Source of the DNA: Escherichia coli
Lineage (GTDB): Bacteria; Pseudomonadota; Gammaproteobacteria; Enterobacterales; Enterobacteriaceae
DNA: 64,000 nt
Assembly (NCBI RefSeq): GCF_017348835.2
Contig: NZ_CP071375.1
Direction: 5' to 3' (one strand)
This document shows, one piece after another, positions 6,116-50,145 of this stretch. Each line of letters begins with the position of its first letter. Position 1 is the stretch's first letter. The notes below the pieces were generated by a model that saw only the letters and a list, made by a program, of their open reading frames with translations, was not told the origin of the DNA and searched no databases. The position numbers and the translations under genes were made by a program.

Positions 6116-6124
6116 CCTGCATGT

Positions 6125-6400
6125 TCATGCCGGATGCGGCGTGAACGCCTTATCCGGCCTTCGAATGGAACGAGAATCTGTAGGCCTGATAAGCGTAGCG
6201 CATCAGGCATTTGTCACCATTGCCGGATGCGGCGTGAACGCCTTATCCGGCCTACAAGTGGCGCAAGAATTTGTAGGCCTGATAAGCGTAGCGCATCAGG
6301 CATTTGTCACCATTGCCGGATGCGGCGTGAACGCCTTATCCGGCCTACGAGTGGCACGAGAATTTGTAGGCCTGATAAGCGTAGCGCATCAGGCAGTCTG
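6125..6400. repeat. BIME/REP array, about three units of GCCGGATGCGGCGTGAACGCCTTATCCGGCCTAC alternating with GTAGGCCTGATAAGCGTAGCGCATCAGGC
   Basis: Directly visible near-identical tandem palindromic units; produces spurious ORFs with repeated MRRERLIRP peptides. Confidence 0.9.
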
Positions 6401-9746: not shown

Positions 9747-10733
9747 ATGATGAATAAACGTTTTGTTATCAATATGGTGTCTTCGCTGTTATTAGGCGCT
9801 GCGCTAATTTCTGCGCCGCTCCAGGCAGCGGAAAAAGTCGTGGTGAATATTTCTAAAGTCGATGGTATGCCGTGGTTTAATCGCATGGGCGAAGGTGTGG
9901 TTGAGGCGGGTAAAGCCTTTGGTGTTAATGCCTCACAGGTGGGGCCTTCAAGTACTGATGCTCCGCAACAGGTTAAAATTATTGAGGATTTAATCGCCCG
10001 TAAGGTTAATGCAATTACTATCGTGCCAAACGATGCCAACGTGCTGGAACCGGTATTCAAAAAAGCGCGAGATGCCGGAATTGTGGTTCTGACCAACGAA
10101 TCCCCCGGTCAGCCAAGTGCTAACTGGGATATCGAAATCATTGATAACGAAAAATTTGCCGCTGAATATGTTGAGCATATGGCGAAACGCATGGGTGGCA
10201 AGGGCGGCTATGTGATTTACGTGGGTAGTTTGACCGTGCCGCAGCATAACTTATGGGCTGACTTGCTGGTGAAATACCAGAAAGAGCATTACCCGGATAT
10301 GCATGAAGTTACCCGCCGCATGCCGGTTGCCGAGAGTGTGGATGACTCACGTCGTACCACACTGGACCTGATGAAAACCTATCCTGACTTGAAAGCGGTT
10401 GTCTCCTTTGGTTCAAACGGTCCGATTGGCGCGGGACGTGCGGTGAAAGAGAAACGGGCGAAAAATAAAGTCGCAGTCTATGGCATGATGATCCCTTCAC
10501 AGGCGGCATCACTGATTAAAAGTGGTGATATCACCGAAGGGATTACTTACGATCCGGCCTCTGCAGGTTACGCACTCGCAGCCGTCGCCAGCACATTGCT
10601 GAAGGGTGAAGAGATCAAGCCTGGATTAGAAATGCAGAATCTGGGTAAGGCCGACGTAGATATGGATAAGCGAATTATCCGTTTCCATAAGGTATTACTG
10701 GTCAACAAAGACAATATCGACTCACTTTATTAA
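9747..10733 (+). CDS. periplasmic sugar-binding protein, LsrB/RbsB family (328 aa) with signal peptide
   Basis: Signal peptide MMNKRFVINMVSSLLLGAALISAPLQAAEK; C-terminal NKDNID motif shared with LsrB-type binding proteins. Confidence 0.85.
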   Translation: MMNKRFVINMVSSLLLGAALISAPLQAAEKVVVNISKVDGMPWFNRMGEGVVEAGKAFGVNASQVGPSSTDAPQQVKIIEDLIARKVNAITIVPNDANVLEPVFKKARDAGIVVLTNESPGQPSANWDIEIIDNEKFAAEYVEHMAKRMGGKGGYVIYVGSLTVPQHNLWADLLVKYQKEHYPDMHEVTRRMPVAESVDDSRRTTLDLMKTYPDLKAVVSFGSNGPIGAGRAVKEKRAKNKVAVYGMMIPSQAASLIKSGDITEGITYDPASAGYALAAVASTLLKGEEIKPGLEMQNLGKADVDMDKRIIRFHKVLLVNKDNIDSLY

Positions 10734-10781
10734 TCCATTTCTTCGGGGCGAAAGCCCCGATTCTTATTGCCAGGGGATGTT

Positions 10782-12266
10782 ATGGAAACCTTCCTTTCCC
10801 TTCGTCATATCAACAAAACGTTTCATGCCACGCGAGCGCTGCGCGATGTTTCTCTCGACTTTATGTCGGGTGAAGTGCACTGCCTTGCCGGGCAAAACGG
10901 CTGTGGTAAATCGACGTTGATTAAAATTATGTCCGGTGTTTATCGCCCGGATGAGGGAGCGGAAATTACGCTTGGTGGGAAAAACTGGTCAAAGCTGACA
11001 CCCGCCGCTTCGGTGGCGCAGGGGATTCAGGTGATTTATCAGGACCTCTCTTTATTTCCTAACCTGAGTGTCTGGGAGAATATCGCCGTGAATCACTATC
11101 ACCACGGTCTGTTTGTTAACCGCCGTCGTCTGCGTGAGGTGGCGCAGGCGGCAATGACCAGTATTAACGTCACATTGCCACTGGATACACTCGTTTCTGA
11201 GCTTTCAATTGCCCGCTGTCAGCTGGTGGCTATTTGCCGTGCACTGGCGCAGGACGCACGGTTGATCGTGATGGATGAACCAACCGCTTCGCTGACCCAT
11301 CAGGAAGTGCAAGGGTTATTACAGGTGGTGCATCAATTGCGTGAACGCGGGATCTGCGTGGTCTTCGTCAGTCATCGTCTGGAAGAAGTGATGGAAGTTT
11401 CCGAGCGTATTTCAGTGCTGAAAGATGGTGAGCTGGTCGGGACTTTTCCGGCTGCAGAGATGACCACAAAACAACTCGGTTTCCTGATGACCGGCCAGGA
11501 GTTTGAATATCAGGTGCGAGAGTTGTGGCAGGGAAAATCCAGCACCCCGGTGCTGGAGGTGCGTAATTTAAGTCGTCATGGGGAATATCTAAATATTAAC
11601 TTGCGGGTGGAAGCGGGCGAAGTGGTATCGATTGTTGGCCTGCTTGGTGCGGGGCGCACGGAATTATGTCTGAGTCTGTTTGGTATGACCCGACCGGATG
11701 CTGGCGAGATCCTCATCAACGGCCAGCCGGTTACACTGCATAGTAACCAGGACGCCATCCGCCACGGTATTGGTTATGTTTCGGAAGATCGCATGTCGCG
11801 CGGTTTGGTGATGGCGCAATCTATTGAAGACAACATCATTAGCACTGTTTTTCACAAGGTAAAAGATCGCTTCGGCTTTCTGAGTGAAACTAAAGTGCGT
11901 GACCTGGTGGACAGGCTAATCAAGGCATTGACCATCAAAGTCTCTGATCCTCATCTCCCGGTGAATACGCTTTCTGGTGGTAACGCGCAGCGAGTATCGA
12001 TCGCCAAATGGCTGGCGATTGGGCCACGACTGTTGATTCTCGATAGCCCGACAGTCGGTGTTGATATCGCCAACAAAGCAGGAATATACGGCATTATCAG
12101 CGATCTGGCGGCTCATGGCATTGCGGTATTGATGATCTGCGATGAAATTGAAGAAGCGTGGTATCAAAGCCACCGGATTTTGGTAATGCAAAAAGGTCAG
12201 ATCACCCATAGCTTCCTGCCTGACAGCAGTTCTCAGGCCAGGATTGCGGAGGTGGTAAATGGCTGA
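10782..12266 (+). CDS. sugar ABC transporter ATP-binding protein, duplicated ABC domains (about 494 aa)
   Basis: Two Walker A motifs (GQNGCGKST and GLLGAGRTE) and an ABC signature (LSGGNAQR); RbsA/LsrA-like architecture. Confidence 0.85.
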   Translation: METFLSLRHINKTFHATRALRDVSLDFMSGEVHCLAGQNGCGKSTLIKIMSGVYRPDEGAEITLGGKNWSKLTPAASVAQGIQVIYQDLSLFPNLSVWENIAVNHYHHGLFVNRRRLREVAQAAMTSINVTLPLDTLVSELSIARCQLVAICRALAQDARLIVMDEPTASLTHQEVQGLLQVVHQLRERGICVVFVSHRLEEVMEVSERISVLKDGELVGTFPAAEMTTKQLGFLMTGQEFEYQVRELWQGKSSTPVLEVRNLSRHGEYLNINLRVEAGEVVSIVGLLGAGRTELCLSLFGMTRPDAGEILINGQPVTLHSNQDAIRHGIGYVSEDRMSRGLVMAQSIEDNIISTVFHKVKDRFGFLSETKVRDLVDRLIKALTIKVSDPHLPVNTLSGGNAQRVSIAKWLAIGPRLLILDSPTVGVDIANKAGIYGIISDLAAHGIAVLMICDEIEEAWYQSHRILVMQKGQITHSFLPDSSSQARIAEVVNG

Positions 12267-13230
12267 ACTGAAAAAACGCCATGAATTCTGGCTGGCATTA
12301 CTGATTGTGGTGCTGTTTGTTGGCCTTGCCTGGCGCAGCGACGAGTTTCTGACATTCGGTAATTTGTACGATCTCGCCAATAACTATGCCATGTTGACTA
12401 TTCTCGCCTGTGGTTTGTTTGTGGTGTTGATTTCCGGTGGAATTGATATTTCGTTTCCAGCTATGACCATCATTGCGCAATACGGCATGGTGCTGTTGCT
12501 GCAAAAAATTGGTGGCAACTTCGCTGTCGCGTTTGCACTGGCGGGCTGCATCGGCATTTTACTTGGCTTAATTAACGCCTTACTGGTTAATCGCCTACGG
12601 GTGCCTTCTATCATCATCACTATCTCGACGCTGAATATTTTCTATGGCCTGCTGTTATGGTTGAGTAAAGGTGTGTGGCTGTACGACTTTCCGCCGTGGT
12701 TTGAGCAGGGGGTTATGTTGTTCAAGTACACCGATGCTGATGGCTATGACTATGGCCTTGGTCTGCCGCTGATCGCCATGATTACGGTGGTGCTGCTAAC
12801 AGCGTTTATCATGAATTTCACCAGTGTAGGGCGCAAAATTTATGCCCTTGGCGGGAACCGCGAATCAGCCAGTCGCATCGGCTTTAGCGTGCTGAAACTG
12901 CAACTTTTCGTCTATGGCTATATGGGATTGATGTCTGGCGCTGCGGGTGTAGTGCAGTCGTGGACGGTGATGACTGTCGCCCCCGATTCTCTTCTGGGTT
13001 ATGAGCTGACAGTACTGGCTGCGGTGGTGCTTGGCGGCACTAGTTTGCTCGGCGGGCACGGCACGTTAACCGGTACTTTGCTCGGCGTGGTGTTGTTGGC
13101 AGTGATGCAAAACGGGCTAAATTTATTGGGAGTCTCGTCTTACTGGCAAACATTGATCACCGGCATCATCATCGTTGCCAGCATTAGTGCCACGGCGTGG
13201 AGTCAGCATCAGAACCGGAGTCTGCTATGA
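12259..13230 (+). CDS. ABC transporter permease, RbsC-like (323 aa)
   Basis: Multi-TM hydrophobic ORF overlapping the ATPase stop by 8 bp. Confidence 0.8.
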   Translation: MAELKKRHEFWLALLIVVLFVGLAWRSDEFLTFGNLYDLANNYAMLTILACGLFVVLISGGIDISFPAMTIIAQYGMVLLLQKIGGNFAVAFALAGCIGILLGLINALLVNRLRVPSIIITISTLNIFYGLLLWLSKGVWLYDFPPWFEQGVMLFKYTDADGYDYGLGLPLIAMITVVLLTAFIMNFTSVGRKIYALGGNRESASRIGFSVLKLQLFVYGYMGLMSGAAGVVQSWTVMTVAPDSLLGYELTVLAAVVLGGTSLLGGHGTLTGTLLGVVLLAVMQNGLNLLGVSSYWQTLITGIIIVASISATAWSQHQNRSLL

Positions 13231-14183
13231 AAAAATCGTGGTGTAATAACGTTGAGTTTTACTTGATCGGCCTGCTGGTGCTAACTGTTGCCGCGTTCAG
13301 CATTACTATGCCGGAGATTTTCTGGTCGATAAGTAATTTCCAGTCCGTCGCTTCGCAAATGCCCGTGCTGGGCATTCTGGCGTTGGCTATGGCGGTGACC
13401 ATGCTTTGCGGTGGCATTAACTTGTCAATTATAGCCACTGCTAACGCCTGTTCACTGGTGATGGCGTGGGTGGCGACTCAGTATCCACCGGGTATTGCTA
13501 CGGTTGTCGCTACGTTACTGGCGGGCGCTGGCGCGGCGGTGATAATCGGTTTATGTAACGGCGTATTGATTGCTGGTATTCGAGTGTCGCCAATTCTTGC
13601 AACGCTTGGGATGATGACGTTGCTCAAAGGGATAAATATTCTGGTGACAGGTGGTAGCGCCATTGCCAATTATCCCTCATGGGTGCTGTGGTTGAATCAT
13701 GCGCAATGGTTCGGTATTCCGCTACCGATGTGGTTGTTTGCCGCAGTGGCACTGGGGCTGTGGATATTGCTGGAAAAAACGCCGCTCGGTAAAGCCATTT
13801 ACCTGATTGGGTCTAACGAACGAGCAACACTTTACTCCGGCATTAACACTCGTCGGGTGCTGATTTGGGTTTATGTCATTTCCGCCTTGCTTTGTGCGGT
13901 AGCGGCATTTTTGATGATGTCGAAACTCAACTCGGCTAAGGCCTCTTATGGCGAATCGTACTTGCTGGTGTCAATCCTCGCGGCAGTACTCGGCGGGGTT
14001 AATCCGGACGGCGGCAGCGGGCGGATAATTGGTATGGTGCTGGCGCTGTTTCTTCTGCAAATTATTGAAAGCGGCTTCAATATTCTCGGTATAAGCCCCT
14101 ACCTGACGATGGCCTTATGGGGAACGTTGCTGCTCTGTTTCATTCAGGCTCGCGGCATGTTGGGGCTGGATCGGGTGGTTTAA
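13227..14183 (+). CDS. ABC transporter permease, second subunit (about 318 aa)
   Basis: Multi-TM ORF; the MKKSW start forms an ATGA overlap with the preceding permease stop. Confidence 0.8.
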   Translation: MKKSWCNNVEFYLIGLLVLTVAAFSITMPEIFWSISNFQSVASQMPVLGILALAMAVTMLCGGINLSIIATANACSLVMAWVATQYPPGIATVVATLLAGAGAAVIIGLCNGVLIAGIRVSPILATLGMMTLLKGINILVTGGSAIANYPSWVLWLNHAQWFGIPLPMWLFAAVALGLWILLEKTPLGKAIYLIGSNERATLYSGINTRRVLIWVYVISALLCAVAAFLMMSKLNSAKASYGESYLLVSILAAVLGGVNPDGGSGRIIGMVLALFLLQIIESGFNILGISPYLTMALWGTLLLCFIQARGMLGLDRVV

Positions 14184-20974: not shown

Positions 20975-21080
20975 TATTCGACAGCCGATGCCTGATGCGT
21001 CGCTGACGCGAATTATCAGGCCTACGGGATGCACTGAACTGTAGGTCGGATAAGACGCATAGCGTCGCATCCGACAACAA
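20975..21080. repeat. REP element pair between prpB and prpC
   Basis: GCCTGATGCGTCGCTGACGCG...GTAGGTCGGATAAGACGCATAGCGTCGCATCCGAC palindromic units. Confidence 0.85.
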
Positions 21081-25704: not shown

Positions 25705-26062
25705 GTCGGATGCGTCGCGTGGCGCATCCGACACCATGCGCCGATGCCTGATGCGACGCTGACGCGTCTTATCATGCCTACAGGTCTGAACCGTAGGTCG
25801 GATAAGGCGTTCGCGCCGCATCCGACACCGTGTGCAGATGCCTGATGCGACGCTGACGCGTCTTATCATGCCTACAGGCCTGAACCGTAGGTCGGATAAG
25901 GCGCTCGCGCCGCATCCGACACCGTGCGCAGATGCCTGATACGACGCAGGCGCGTCTTATCATGCCTACAGGCCTGAACCGCAGGTCGGATAAGGCGTTC
26001 GCGCCGCATCCGACACCATGCGCCGATGCCTGATGCGACGCTGGCGCGTCTTATCATGCCTG
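25705..26062. repeat. BIME/REP array (about four units) between prpE and codB
   Basis: Repeated CCGATGCCTGATGCGACGCTGACGCGTCTTATCATGCCTACAGG...GTAGGTCGGATAAGGCG units; generates nested spurious ORFs on the minus strand. Confidence 0.9.
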
Positions 26063-28747: not shown

Positions 28748-28779
28748 TCGGCTGGGCTGTGTGTTGACAAAGCGAGCGT

Positions 28780-28870
28780 AGTTTATGCCGGATGCGGCGT
28801 GAACGCCTTATCCGGCCTACGTAGAGCACTGAACTCGTAGGCCTGATAAGCGTAGCGCATCAGGCAATTG
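28780..28870. repeat. REP pair between codA and cynR
   Basis: GCCGGATGCGGCGTGAACGCCTTATCCGGCCTAC ... GTAGGCCTGATAAGCGTAGCGCATCAGGC. Confidence 0.85.
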
Positions 28871-28879
28871 TGTCAGTGG

Positions 28880-32338: not shown

Positions 32339-32950
32339 TTAAACTGACGATTCAACTTTATAATCTTTGAAATAATATTGCTTATCCCGGTCGTTTATTT
32401 CGCGAATAACCCGACAAGGAACGCCAGCCGCCACGACGTTTGGTGGAATGTCTTTTGTGACGATACTACCCGCGCCAATAACAGAATTATCCCCGATGGT
32501 GACGCCTGGATTAATAACCACATGACTTCCGATCCAGACGTTATTGCCAATCGTTATCGGAAAAGAGTACATCTCGCCGTTTTTTCTCAATTCATGGTGT
32601 ACAGGGTGTCCCGTAACGGAAAGAGTAACGTTGGGTGCAATCAGTACGTTATCACCGATTGTTACCGTGTAGTCATCGACAATGGTTAAATTGAAATTTG
32701 CATAAAAATTGCGGCCTATATGGATGTTGGAACCGTAAGAGAAATAGACAGGCGGTTCTACCCAGGCGTTTTCCCCTACCTTGGCAAACATTTCTTTAAT
32801 CAGGCTTTCTCTTTTTTCAACTTCTGATGGATGCGAGTGATTAAACTCATACATTAACGTTTTCCCACGAAGTCTTTTTTCCGGTAAGCCTTCGCACATA
32901 TCGGTAAATAGCTTGCCTGCTTTTATTCTTTCTGTCATCGACATGTTCAT
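32339..32950 (-). CDS. lacA: galactoside O-acetyltransferase (203 aa)
   Basis: ORF 32339..33001 is artificially extended into a REP; true start MNMSMTERIKAGKLFTDM; hexapeptide-repeat acyltransferase. Confidence 0.92.
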   Translation of the reverse strand: MNMSMTERIKAGKLFTDMCEGLPEKRLRGKTLMYEFNHSHPSEVEKRESLIKEMFAKVGENAWVEPPVYFSYGSNIHIGRNFYANFNLTIVDDYTVTIGDNVLIAPNVTLSVTGHPVHHELRKNGEMYSFPITIGNNVWIGSHVVINPGVTIGDNSVIGAGSIVTKDIPPNVVAAGVPCRVIREINDRDKQYYFKDYKVESSV

Positions 32951-33015: not shown

Positions 33016-34314
<1,299 letters not shown>

Positions 34315-34320
34315 TTATTA

Positions 34321-37433
<3,113 letters not shown>

Positions 37434-37439
37434 TCACAC

Positions 37440-37469
37440 AACATACGAGCCGGACACATAGAGTGTAAA
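37440..37469 (-). promoter_or_regulatory. lacZ promoter (-10 TATGTT, -35 TTTACA, 18-bp spacer)
   Basis: Hexamers read directly on the minus strand; spacer carries three substitutions relative to K-12 as I recall it. Confidence 0.9.
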
Positions 37470-37481
37470 GCCTGGGGTGCC

Positions 37482-37505
37482 TAATGAGTGAGCTGACTCA
37501 CATTA
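37482..37505 (-). promoter_or_regulatory. CAP/CRP site of the lac promoter
   Basis: TAATGTGAGTCAGCTCACTCATTA; one central substitution relative to the K-12 site as I recall it; both TGTGA/TCACT arms intact. Confidence 0.9.
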
Positions 37506-37525
37506 ATTGCGTTGCGCTCACTGCC
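37505..37525 (-). promoter_or_regulatory. lac operator O3 (overlaps the lacI 3' end)
   Basis: Reverse complement GGCAGTGAGCGCAACGCAATT; 92 bp from the O1 centre. Confidence 0.85.
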
Positions 37526-38600
37526 CGCTTTCCAGCCGGGAAACTTGGCGTGCCAGCTGCATTAATGAATCGGCCAACGCGCGGGGAGAGGCGGTTTGCG
37601 TCTTGGGCGCCAGGGTGGTTTTTCTTTTCACCAGAGAGACGGGCAAAAGCTGATTGCCCTTCACCGCCTGGCCCTGAGAGAGTTGCAGCAAGCGGTCCAC
37701 GCTGGTTTGCCCCAGCAGGCGAAAATCCTGTTTGATGGTGGTTAACGGCGGGATATAACACGAGCTGTCTTCGGTATCGTCGTATCCCACTACCGAGATA
37801 TCCGCACCAACGCGCAACCCGGACTCGGTAATGGCGCGCATTGCGCCCAGCGCCATCTGATCGTTGGCAACCAGCATCGCAGTGGGAACGATGCCCTCAT
37901 TTAGCATTTGCATGGTTTGTTGAAAACCGGACATGGCACTCCAGTCGCCCTCCCGTTCCGCTATCGGCTGAATTTGATTGCGTGTGAGATATTTATGCCA
38001 GCCCGCCAGACGCAGACGCGCCGAGACAGAACTTAATGGGCCCGCTAACAGCGCGATTTGCTGGTGACCCAATGCGACCAGATGCTCCACGCCCAGTCGC
38101 GTACCGTCTTCATGGGAGAAAATAATACTGTTGATGGGAGTCTGGTCAGAGACATCAAGAAATAACGCCGGAACATTAGCGCAGGCAGCTTCCACAGCAA
38201 TGGCATCCTGGTCATCCAGCGGATAGTTAATGATCAGCCCACTGACGCGTTGCGCGAGAAGATTGTGCACCGCCGCTTTACAGGCTTCGACGCCGCTTCG
38301 TTCTACCATCGACACCACCACGCTGGCACCCAGTTGATCGGCGCGAGATTTAATCGCCGCGACAATTTGTGACGGCGCGTGCAGGGCCAGACTGGAGGTG
38401 GCAACGCCAATCAGCAACGACTGTTTCCCCGCCAGTTGTTGTGCCACGCGGTTGGGAATGTAATTCAGCTCCGCCATCGCCGCTTCCACTTTTTCCCGCG
38501 TTTTCGCAGAAACGTGGCTGGCCTGGTTCACCACGCGGGAAACGGTCTGATAAGAGACTCCGGCATACTCTGCGACATCGTATAGCGTTACTGGTTTCAC
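37518..38600 (-). CDS. lacI: lactose repressor (GTG start, 360 aa)
   Basis: ORF 37518..38609; GTG at 38598-38600 gives MKPVTLYDVAEYAGVSYQTVSRVVNQ. Confidence 0.97.
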   Translation of the reverse strand: MKPVTLYDVAEYAGVSYQTVSRVVNQASHVSAKTREKVEAAMAELNYIPNRVAQQLAGKQSLLIGVATSSLALHAPSQIVAAIKSRADQLGASVVVSMVERSGVEACKAAVHNLLAQRVSGLIINYPLDDQDAIAVEAACANVPALFLDVSDQTPINSIIFSHEDGTRLGVEHLVALGHQQIALLAGPLSSVSARLRLAGWHKYLTRNQIQPIAEREGDWSAMSGFQQTMQMLNEGIVPTAMLVANDQMALGAMRAITESGLRVGADISVVGYDDTEDSSCYIPPLTTIKQDFRLLGQTSVDRLLQLSQGQAVKGNQLLPVSLVKRKTTLAPKTQTASPRALADSLMQLARQVSRLESGQ

Positions 38601-38670
38601 ATTCACCACCCTGAATTGACTCTCTTCCGGGCGCTATCATGCCATACCGCGAAAGGTTTTGCGCCATTCG
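38601..38670 (-). promoter_or_regulatory. lacI promoter (-35 GCGCAA, -10 CATGAT), embedded in the 3' end of the upstream regulator gene
   Basis: Reverse complement reads GAATGGCGCAAAACCTTTCGCGGTATGGCATGATAGCGCCCGGAAGAGAGTCAATTCAGGGTGGTGAAT, the classical lacI promoter sequence. Confidence 0.85.
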
Positions 38671-39590
38671 GCGGGGCTGACGCCGAAGTGAGATTTAAAA
38701 TGCTGACGCCAGGTCACAGGTGAGAGAAAACCCACCTCAGCCGCTATCCGCTCCACGGGCAACTGACTGGATCCCAACAGTTCCTGGCTACGGCGTAAGC
38801 GTTCAGTAATGAGCCATTCGGCGATACTCGAACCGGTCGCTTTCATAAAATGGCGAGTTAATGTGCGGCGACTCATCATTACTCGCTGCGCCAGCGAGTC
38901 GAGATCATGCTGTTGCGCAATGTTTTGCCGCAGGTAATCCAGCAGGAGATTAATGCGTTCATCAAGGGTATTTTTCGGCACTGGTTGCTCAATAAACTGC
39001 GCCTGACCGCCAGTGCGATATGGCGGTACGACCATCCGTCGGGCAATATGGTTAGCATAGTCGCTGCCAAAATGTTGCCGAACAATATACAAACAGCAAT
39101 CCAGCGCCGCGGCAGTACCGGCAGAGGTAATAATGCCGTCATCGTCTACGTACAACGCGTTAATATCCAGATGTGTTTGTGGAAAACGTGCCTGAAATTC
39201 ACGCTCGAACTCCCAGTGCGTGGCGGCACGCTTATTTTTCAGTAAACCTGCATAGCCGAGCACAAACGTGCCCAGGCAAAGCCCGACAATCTGTGCGCCG
39301 TTATCCCGTGCGGTCGTTAAGGCTTCCAGCAGTTTTTGTGGCGGTTTTTGTGTAATGGTTCCCCAGTAAGGAATTATCACAATATCTGCCTGGATGACTG
39401 CGGTATAGTCATGGGTGGCGGTTACGGAAAACCCATCGGCAGAGTCCACGTTTCCCGGCTTTTCAGCGCAGATAATTACGTGAAAGTGTTTTTTCTCCGC
39501 CATTTTTTCGCTAAATACGATAAACGGTACGGAAAGGTGAAAAGGACTAAAACCGGCAACGGCGATAATGGCAACAGTTAGCGGGCGCAT
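38637..39590 (-). CDS. DJ-1/PfpI-domain plus AraC-type HTH transcriptional regulator (GlxA/FtrA-like), 317 aa
   Basis: N-terminal DJ-1-like domain with the conserved Cys nucleophile elbow (QIVGLCLGTFVL); C-terminal AraC HTH (RRTLTRHF, SPAEWRKTF). Confidence 0.8.
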   Translation of the reverse strand: MRPLTVAIIAVAGFSPFHLSVPFIVFSEKMAEKKHFHVIICAEKPGNVDSADGFSVTATHDYTAVIQADIVIIPYWGTITQKPPQKLLEALTTARDNGAQIVGLCLGTFVLGYAGLLKNKRAATHWEFEREFQARFPQTHLDINALYVDDDGIITSAGTAAALDCCLYIVRQHFGSDYANHIARRMVVPPYRTGGQAQFIEQPVPKNTLDERINLLLDYLRQNIAQQHDLDSLAQRVMMSRRTLTRHFMKATGSSIAEWLITERLRRSQELLGSSQLPVERIAAEVGFLSPVTWRQHFKSHFGVSPAEWRKTFRGMA

Positions 39591-39609
39591 AACACTCTTT
39601 ATCTCCGAA

Positions 39610-40398
39610 TTAGAATGTCAACGTTTCACCATCTTCTGGTACGTTCACAAATTCGATAATTTGATTATCTCTGGCGTATTCCTTGAGCGCATCACGCGTC
39701 AGCAAACAGTGGTTTACGGCCTCCATATGTGTCGCGACAATTTGCGCTTCTGGCAGGGTAAAATGTGTTTTGAGAATATCTTCTGCTCCCATAATTATCG
39801 CGCCATGCCCCAGAACATGCGCAAATCCGGCATTCAACACAACCACTTCTGGTTGGAAAGTTAGCATTGTAGCCTCGACGTCGTCACGCCAGAGGGTATC
39901 GCCACCCAGATAGAGCGTTTTCTCTGTCGGGTGCTGGAAAACAACGCCGCAGGCTGCGCCTAAACGCTTCGCCATAGCCGGGTCGGCATAGGTGCGATCG
40001 GAGCCGTGCTGCCCTGTCGTTTTATGCAGAGTAATATCGCCAAATTTAGTCTCGTCGGTAAGTACGGTAAGATGCGTAAATCCTTGTTTATTCAGTGATT
40101 CAGCATCTTGCTCATTTTGCACATAAATCAGTTTATCTTTAGGGACGACGCGGGAGGCTGTTTCGTCCCAGTGATCTTCATGCAAATGGGTCACGATTAG
40201 GGCGTCAACGTTGAGTAACGTTGTTAAATCGCACGGTAATTCTACCGTTGGATTGCGGATTTCTGCGCGTGCCGTTCCGGCAAAACCCGGATAACTTCCT
40301 TTAGGCGCGAGTAACGGGTCGATAAGAAATGTTTTGCCAGCGTATTGGATAATTTGGGTGGCATTACGAATTTGCGTAATTTTCATGATTTGCTCCAC
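39610..40398 (-). CDS. metallo-beta-lactamase-fold hydrolase (262 aa)
   Basis: HxHxDH motif (THLHEDHWDE) plus downstream His/Asp ligands; 19 bp upstream of the regulator on the same strand. Confidence 0.8.
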   Translation of the reverse strand: MEQIMKITQIRNATQIIQYAGKTFLIDPLLAPKGSYPGFAGTARAEIRNPTVELPCDLTTLLNVDALIVTHLHEDHWDETASRVVPKDKLIYVQNEQDAESLNKQGFTHLTVLTDETKFGDITLHKTTGQHGSDRTYADPAMAKRLGAACGVVFQHPTEKTLYLGGDTLWRDDVEATMLTFQPEVVVLNAGFAHVLGHGAIIMGAEDILKTHFTLPEAQIVATHMEAVNHCLLTRDALKEYARDNQIIEFVNVPEDGETLTF

Positions 40399-47829: not shown

Positions 47830-48085
<256 letters not shown>

Positions 48086-48172
48086 CCCGTAGGCAGTCAT
48101 TAAATGGTTCTGATTACGCGGCTGGCAATGTATCAGTCGCGATTCACCTGCACTCGCAACGAGGTTCATCTT

Positions 48173-50034: not shown

Positions 50035-50145
50035 AGTCGTGCGCAGATGCCTGATGCGACGCTTACGCGTCTTATCATGCCTACGGCTCATGGGCGAAAT
50101 GTAGGCCGGATAAGGCGTTCACGCCGCATCCGGCAGTTGTGCACT
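50035..50145. repeat. REP pair between yaiL and frmB
   Basis: GCCTGATGCGACGCTTACGCGTCTTATCATGCCTAC ... GTAGGCCGGATAAGGCGTTCACGCCGCATCCGGCA. Confidence 0.85.

Follow-up and report, generated by a model that had tools for sequence, protein, structure and literature searches.

Old and common polymorphisms in the intact lac promoter region of a non-K-12 Escherichia coli

Introduction

L8 and L29 in the CRP half-sites and UV5 in the -10 are the classical laboratory mutations of the Escherichia coli lac promoter, single-base changes with large effects. In a survey of natural variation, lac promoters from 91 strains of E. coli were mapped onto Sort-Seq energy matrices, which placed the natural SNPs at weakly acting bases, with a predicted change in binding energy of less than 1 kBT (Razo-Mejia et al. 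2014, bioRxiv 10.1101/003772). Conservation of the N6 centre of CRP sites is at best very weak (PMC2504297). Expression measurements on 18 of 26 natural lacZ promoter variants gave a spread in transcription of ∼3-fold, and two SNPs alone, one 7 bp before and the other 6 bp after the ATG, tracked a phenotype, namely noise in glucose (Vlkova & Silander 2022, 10.1101/2022.03.17.484780). Differences between strains in lac regulation have in large part been assigned to the trans background in work with a reporter that used a common Plac, which also found that the CRP-RNAP interaction parameter carries a phylogenetic signal (Phillips et al. 2019).

Here, we compare with these systems the lac control region in a 64,000-nt stretch of E. 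coli DNA (the window, by which we mean the whole stretch analysed). The control region is on the minus strand, and the interval 37440-37505, on which a preliminary description of the window had focused, falls within the lacI-lacZ intergenic region. That description regarded the base changes in the promoter spacer and CAP site as natural variants by which this strain may differ in lac induction.

Results and discussion

Architecture of the control region

The window was aligned with the lacI-lacZ intergenic region of K-12 MG1655 (NC_000913, 366306-366427), and the resulting features are collected in Table 1. All three operators, the -35 and -10 hexamers, the length of the spacer, the CRP half-sites, the Shine-Dalgarno (SD) sequence and the ATG are identical to those of K-12. 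The operators had been described as intact at 401 and 92 bp, and the exact matches bear this out, with centres at 37423 (O1), 37022 (O2) and 37515 (O3) that place O2 401 bp downstream and O3 92 bp upstream of O1. Such matches are expected by chance 0–0.01 times (0 for the exact 21-mer of O1). The preserved hexamers and the 18-bp spacer of the preliminary description were likewise recovered in the alignment, and a sigma-70 promoter scan returned the same call for the window and K-12 alleles. By homology with K-12, the transcription start (+1) would be at 37433, so that it is overlapped by O1.

Table 1. Features of the lac region in the window, with substitutions given on the minus strand relative to K-12 MG1655.
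Feature	Position	Strand	Remarks
lacI	37518..38600	-	Intact, 360 aa, GTG start; T141A and N333K relative to K-12
O3 auxiliary operator GGCAGTGAGCGCAACGCAATT	37505-37525	-	Exact, as K-12; centre at -82; overlaps lacI stop codon
CAP site TAATGTGAGTCAGCTCACTCATTA	37505..37482	-	22-bp CRP site at 37484..37505, centred at -61.5
CRP half-site TGTGA	37502..37498	-	Intact
CAP-site substitution	37495 (-62)	-	K-12 T > window C; adjacent to the dyad, at position 11 of 22 (centre between 37495 and 37494)
CRP half-site TCACT	37491..37487	-	Intact
lacP1 -35 hexamer TTTACA	37469..37464	-	As in K-12
18-bp spacer CTCTATGTGTCCGGCTCG	37463..37446	-	Length as in K-12
Spacer substitution	37461 (-28)	-	K-12 T > window C
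Spacer substitution	37456 (-23)	-	K-12 C > window T
Spacer substitution	37455 (-22)	-	K-12 T > window G
lacP1 -10 hexamer TATGTT	37445..37440	-	As in K-12
Substitution abutting O1	37434 (-1)	-	K-12 G > window A
O1 primary operator AATTGTGAGCGGATAACAATT	37413-37433	-	Exact 21-mer, as K-12; +1 to +21
Shine-Dalgarno AGGA	37406..37403	-	Followed by the +32 T
Substitution between SD and ATG	37402 (+32)	-	K-12 A > window T
lacZ	34321..37395	-	Intact, 1,024 codons; codon 2 is ACC (37390 = C)
O2 auxiliary operator, inside lacZ	37012-37032	-	Exact, as K-12
lacY	33016..34269	-	Intact; 0 amino-acid differences from K-12
lacA	32339..32950	-	Intact; ATG start

Since every binding site is conserved, established knowledge of the lac system would extend to the window. 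The sigma-70 promoter would be a weak one, to which cAMP-CRP bound at -61.5 would recruit RNA polymerase (class I), while LacI tetramers on O1 would loop to O3 or O2 and so repress transcription. The identity of all binding sites leads us to infer that transcription from +1 would be IPTG/allolactose-inducible and cAMP-CRP-dependent.

Six bases that differ from K-12

Six of the 122 intergenic bases differ between the window and K-12 MG1655 (-62, -28, -23, -22, -1 and +32), none of them in an operator, a hexamer, a CRP half-site or the SD. The changes therefore avoid the half-sites and the -10, where L8, L29 and UV5 lie. Three spacer substitutions and one central T to C change in the CAP site had been proposed relative to K-12. 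The alignment with NC_000913 shows that the K-12 reference used there was correct and that the promoter is not identical to that of K-12, the spacer changes being those at -28, -23 and -22 and the CAP-site change that at -62. The -1 G>A and +32 A>T changes, and the strand, had been omitted. Within the N6 of the CRP site position 3 alone differs from K-12, and the +32 site is the polymorphism that Vlkova & Silander (10.1101/2022.03.17.484780) describe as -7 from the ATG.

When O1, the intergenic part of O3, the CRP half-sites, -35, -10 and SD are counted as 'critical' (60 of the 122 positions), no substitution is found at a position contributing strongly to CRP, RNA polymerase or LacI binding (0/6; hypergeometric P=0.015, post hoc), and the published mapping of natural SNPs gives less than 1 kBT. 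Neither do the spacer changes create or destroy overlapping sigma-70-like hexamers in the promoter scan, in which the window equals K-12.

An inverted repeat surrounds the O1 core at 37400-37446, with a perfect 13-nt inner arm and 89% identity over 19 nt overall. It is the A at -1 that makes the 13-nt repeat perfect; the K-12 G at this position, which appears to be derived (see below), breaks it and is the single mismatch of the textbook O1-flanking repeat.

Allele frequencies in E. coli

The frequency of each allele was determined with allele-specific 40-mer megablast queries, a match requiring an exact 28-mer spanning the site, against 5,426 complete E. coli genomes, of which ∼5,339 carry the lac region; as a RefSeq sample, this set is clonally biased. 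The window C at -62 is present in 2,544 genomes (48%) and the K-12 T in 2,799. For the spacer positions -28/-23/-22, the window combination C/T/G occurs in 1,041 genomes (19.5%) and the K-12 combination T/C/T in 2,776, with T/C/G in a further 946 and C/C/G in 353. At -1 the window A is the majority allele (4,376 genomes, 82%). Carriers of the C/T/G spacer include ST131, Nissle 1917 and LF82, which identifies it as the spacer of phylogroup B2, and in an alignment of ten alleles the B2, E and F representatives have most of the window bases in common. No SNP in the intergenic region is private to the window when compared with five phylogroup representatives, and the flagged alleles, each found in 19.5–48% of genomes, are neither private nor rare. 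The differences between the window and K-12 are thus old, common polymorphisms that separate, roughly, A/B1 from B2/D/E/F-type alleles.

Comparison with individual alleles places the window more precisely. The B2 alleles (ATCC 11775 and PSUO2; ST131, Nissle 1917 and LF82 by 40-mer) have the C/T/G spacer, -62C, -1A and +32T in common with the window, but add -38 G>T and a G>A in O3, and their lacZ codon 2 is ACT. ATCC 11775, the E. coli type strain (L005), differs further by a G>A inside O1 (GAGCGAATAAC); repression is more likely to be affected by these operator changes than by any of the changes in the window. In SMS-3-5 (phylogroup F) the intergenic region is the same as that of the window except for a C at -23. 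This -23C, together with ACT at codon 2 (the TT genotype), distinguishes SMS-3-5, O55:H7 and O157:H7 (F/E) from the window, and O55:H7 also has -39 G>C. O55:H7 CB9615 resembles the window in its LacI, which has the same protein accession, and in a pair of genes upstream of lacI (see below).

Polarity of the changes

To polarise the changes we drew on loci from Escherichia, Citrobacter and Kluyvera found by an O1-core scan of GTDB species representatives, which recovered E. whittamii, Escherichia sp. E1V33, the representative of a divergent 'E. coli' cluster, Citrobacter sedlakii and Kluyvera spp. The same scan returned exact lac O1 cores in assemblies of Streptomyces, SAR11, cyanobacteria, Bacillus and other taxa (loci L012-L055), mostly on short contigs. 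Such cores in unrelated taxa most likely represent cloning-vector contamination of public assemblies, and were left out of the comparison.

All three Escherichia outgroups carry -62C, -23C, -1A and +32T, while -22G and -28C are each present in two of the three. Since the three outgroups agree with the window at -62, -1 and +32, it is K-12 (A/B1) that appears derived and the window ancestral at these positions, although recombination could blur the polarity. K-12 is probably also derived at -22, where the outgroups are not unanimous. Of the changes flagged in the preliminary description, only -23T would be a derived base of the window, and this base is common to phylogroup B2.

The description of these bases as natural variants of the strain is therefore only partly supported. 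Its sequence facts stand, and it is true in principle that the CRP-site centre and the spacer can tune a promoter, but the alleles are common and characterise lineages. Their high frequency, the derived state of K-12 at -62 and the weakly acting positions at which published surveys place such changes make a strain-specific framing misleading.

Flanking genes and chromosomal context

Over 40,181 bp the window has a single mismatch to the pig isolate E. coli PE164 (99.998% identity), and its identity to K-12 is 96.5–98.3% throughout. The lac region sits in a full-length chromosomal setting (mhp, lacI, lacZYA, cyn, cod and prp) that is syntenic with both K-12 and PE164, and it is the LacI of PE164 whose protein accession is also that of LacI in O55:H7 CB9615. 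lacZ differs from its K-12 counterpart by 3.19% at the nucleotide level, with 28 amino-acid differences. The Jukes-Cantor distance of the intergenic region to K-12 (0.051) is below the dS of both lacZ (0.105) and lacI (0.061), so the promoter is not unusually diverged. We considered whether the lac region might be recently imported or unusually diverged, and rejected this on the K-12 identity of 96.5–98.3% across the window and an intergenic divergence lower than the flanking dS.

Divergence from K-12 is uneven along the operon, dS falling from 0.105 in lacZ to 0.031 in lacY and 0.015 in lacA, a pattern that suggests a mosaic history by recombination. Six SNPs private to the window, relative to the five phylogroup representatives, are clustered within 37 bp at 37267-37231, with others at 37189, 37167 and 37071. 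These positions correspond to lacZ codons ∼43-110, and the changes in the N-terminal part of LacZ include T45A, P48H, Q50R, R60Q and C77R, among others; the cluster could stem from recombination over a short tract or be a hypervariable patch. The lacA start at 32950 is ATG in the window and is annotated as TTG in K-12, a difference that could affect the efficiency of LacA translation.

Several further features of the window lie outside the lac operon. Between lacI and mhpR a 1.8-kb block (38637-40398, minus strand), absent from K-12, SMS-3-5 and IAI1, encodes a GlxA-type regulator (DJ-1/PfpI with an AraC HTH) and an MBL-fold hydrolase. Its presence in O55:H7 CB9615, and as a remnant in ATCC 11775, marks the block as a presence/absence polymorphism. 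A second block of ∼5 kb between yahJ and yahK, also absent from K-12, contains four genes for a sugar-type ABC transporter (9747-14183, plus strand), comprising a Peripla_BP_4 binding protein, a double-ABC ATPase and two BPD_transp_2 permeases. Intergenic repeats of ∼100 bp, some of them in tandem, are found at 6123-6400, 20976-21078, 25705-26061, 28778-28871, 47835-48095 and 50035-50142; these families match one another as well as several intergenic sites of K-12, and are probably REP/BIME-type elements.

A rare haplotype built from common alleles

Common as the flagged alleles are, the exact 181-bp allele of the window is present in only two of the 5,426 genomes, PE164 and F2_81, both from pigs. 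Its rarity stems from the combination of T at +32 with ACC at lacZ codon 2, and not from the flagged SNPs. This combination, the 'TC genotype' (+32 T at 37402 and C at the third base of codon 2, at 37390, both on the minus strand), occurs in 27 genomes, as against 2,887 with AC and 2,401 with TT. The latter two are, respectively, the 'high-noise' and 'low-noise' classes in glucose of Vlkova & Silander (10.1101/2022.03.17.484780), whose two phenotype-tracking SNPs are thus +32 and lacZ codon 2 and none of the flagged sites. The TC genotype is also found in E. whittamii and in the divergent Escherichia representative, and in the window it may have been retained from an ancestor, regained by reversion or brought in on a small recombination tract.

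The window haplotype as a whole therefore consists of a B2-type spacer without the B2 changes at -38 and in O3, plus the TC genotype. One account of its origin is that the promoter is a recombinant mosaic, in which a non-B2 lac region has received the B2-type -23T, or has a junction near the lacZ start that gives rise to TC, or both. We regard this as possible, though on balance doubtful. It would explain why -23T, which otherwise goes with the B2-specific -38T, is found without it here (20 of 1,042 records matched by the 40-mer lack -38T), and the scarcity of both the TC combination and the exact 181-bp allele points the same way, as do the uneven divergence of the operon and the private-SNP patch in lacZ. 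On the other hand, TC in E. whittamii and the divergent Escherichia representative means that the combination could equally be retained ancestry or a single reversion, as has also been suggested in the literature (10.1101/2022.03.17.484780), and a single C>T at -23 could easily recur. Nor does the nearest relative switch sharply at the promoter in 400-bp windows: when distances to A, B1, E, F, B2 and two outgroups were profiled, no clear recombination breakpoint emerged there. A mosaic concerns the origin of the haplotype alone, and is compatible with the promoter being an ordinary allele. It is very unlikely, in our view, that the haplotype is a recombinant or relict allele with a noise or basal-expression phenotype of its own, intermediate between those of AC and TT.

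Expected effect on expression

The differences would lie at positions contributing little to the binding of CRP, RNA polymerase or LacI. To the directly observed sequence, intact architecture, allele frequencies and polarity of the changes we add an expectation of effect size drawn from published work: any change in lac expression relative to K-12 is expected to be at most small, much less than 1 kBT for each site and inside the ∼3-fold natural range, and a modest quantitative difference is possible. We therefore consider it highly probable (roughly 0.92) that the lacI-lacZYA control region in the window is an ordinary one from a non-K-12 lineage, fully functional, and that its differences from K-12 are old, common and of at most small effect.

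A stronger form of the tuning idea is that -62C lowers CRP affinity or bending and that the spacer changes alter RNA polymerase binding or overlapping weak upstream promoters, and, as part of the same reading, that the lineage's catabolite sensitivity or induced level is substantially unlike that of K-12. Both parts seem to us improbable. The idea draws on the K-12 T at -62, with which, unlike C, the site has the T.A centre of the symmetric consensus for CRP (PMC2504297), on the up to ∼3-fold differences between natural variants (10.1101/2022.03.17.484780), and on the differences between strains in lac regulation, with a phylogenetic signal in the CRP-RNAP parameter (Phillips et al. 2019). Much of that between-strain variation is, however, trans-acting, and the only SNPs that tracked phenotype among the measured natural variants were those at +32 and lacZ codon 2. 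In the window all strongly acting positions are avoided, the promoter scan is the same for both alleles and the published energy-matrix mapping remains below 1 kBT; moreover, the alleles are phylogroup-wide at frequencies of 20–50%, and not confined to one strain.

That errors of sequencing or assembly account for the differences, or that the region is lac sequence of a cloning vector, has a negligible probability and is refuted by the matching genomes and the chromosomal context. The same 181 bp are found in two independent complete genomes, each allele recurs in hundreds to thousands of others, and the region sits in the full-length context from mhp to prp; vector lac fragments, in addition, would have the K-12 allele.

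Conclusions

Natural variation at the flagged sites has been described in published surveys, so that what is seen in the window is real, ordinary and already known; the small effect of such variation on CRP, RNA polymerase and LacI binding has likewise been surveyed and in part measured. Were the TC genotype to have a distinct noise phenotype, it would offer a natural test of which SNP close to the start codon is causal, a minor refinement. For the species, the lac promoter of K-12 represents a single allele within an old polymorphism, and at -62, -1 and +32 it would be a derived form and not the 'wild-type'.
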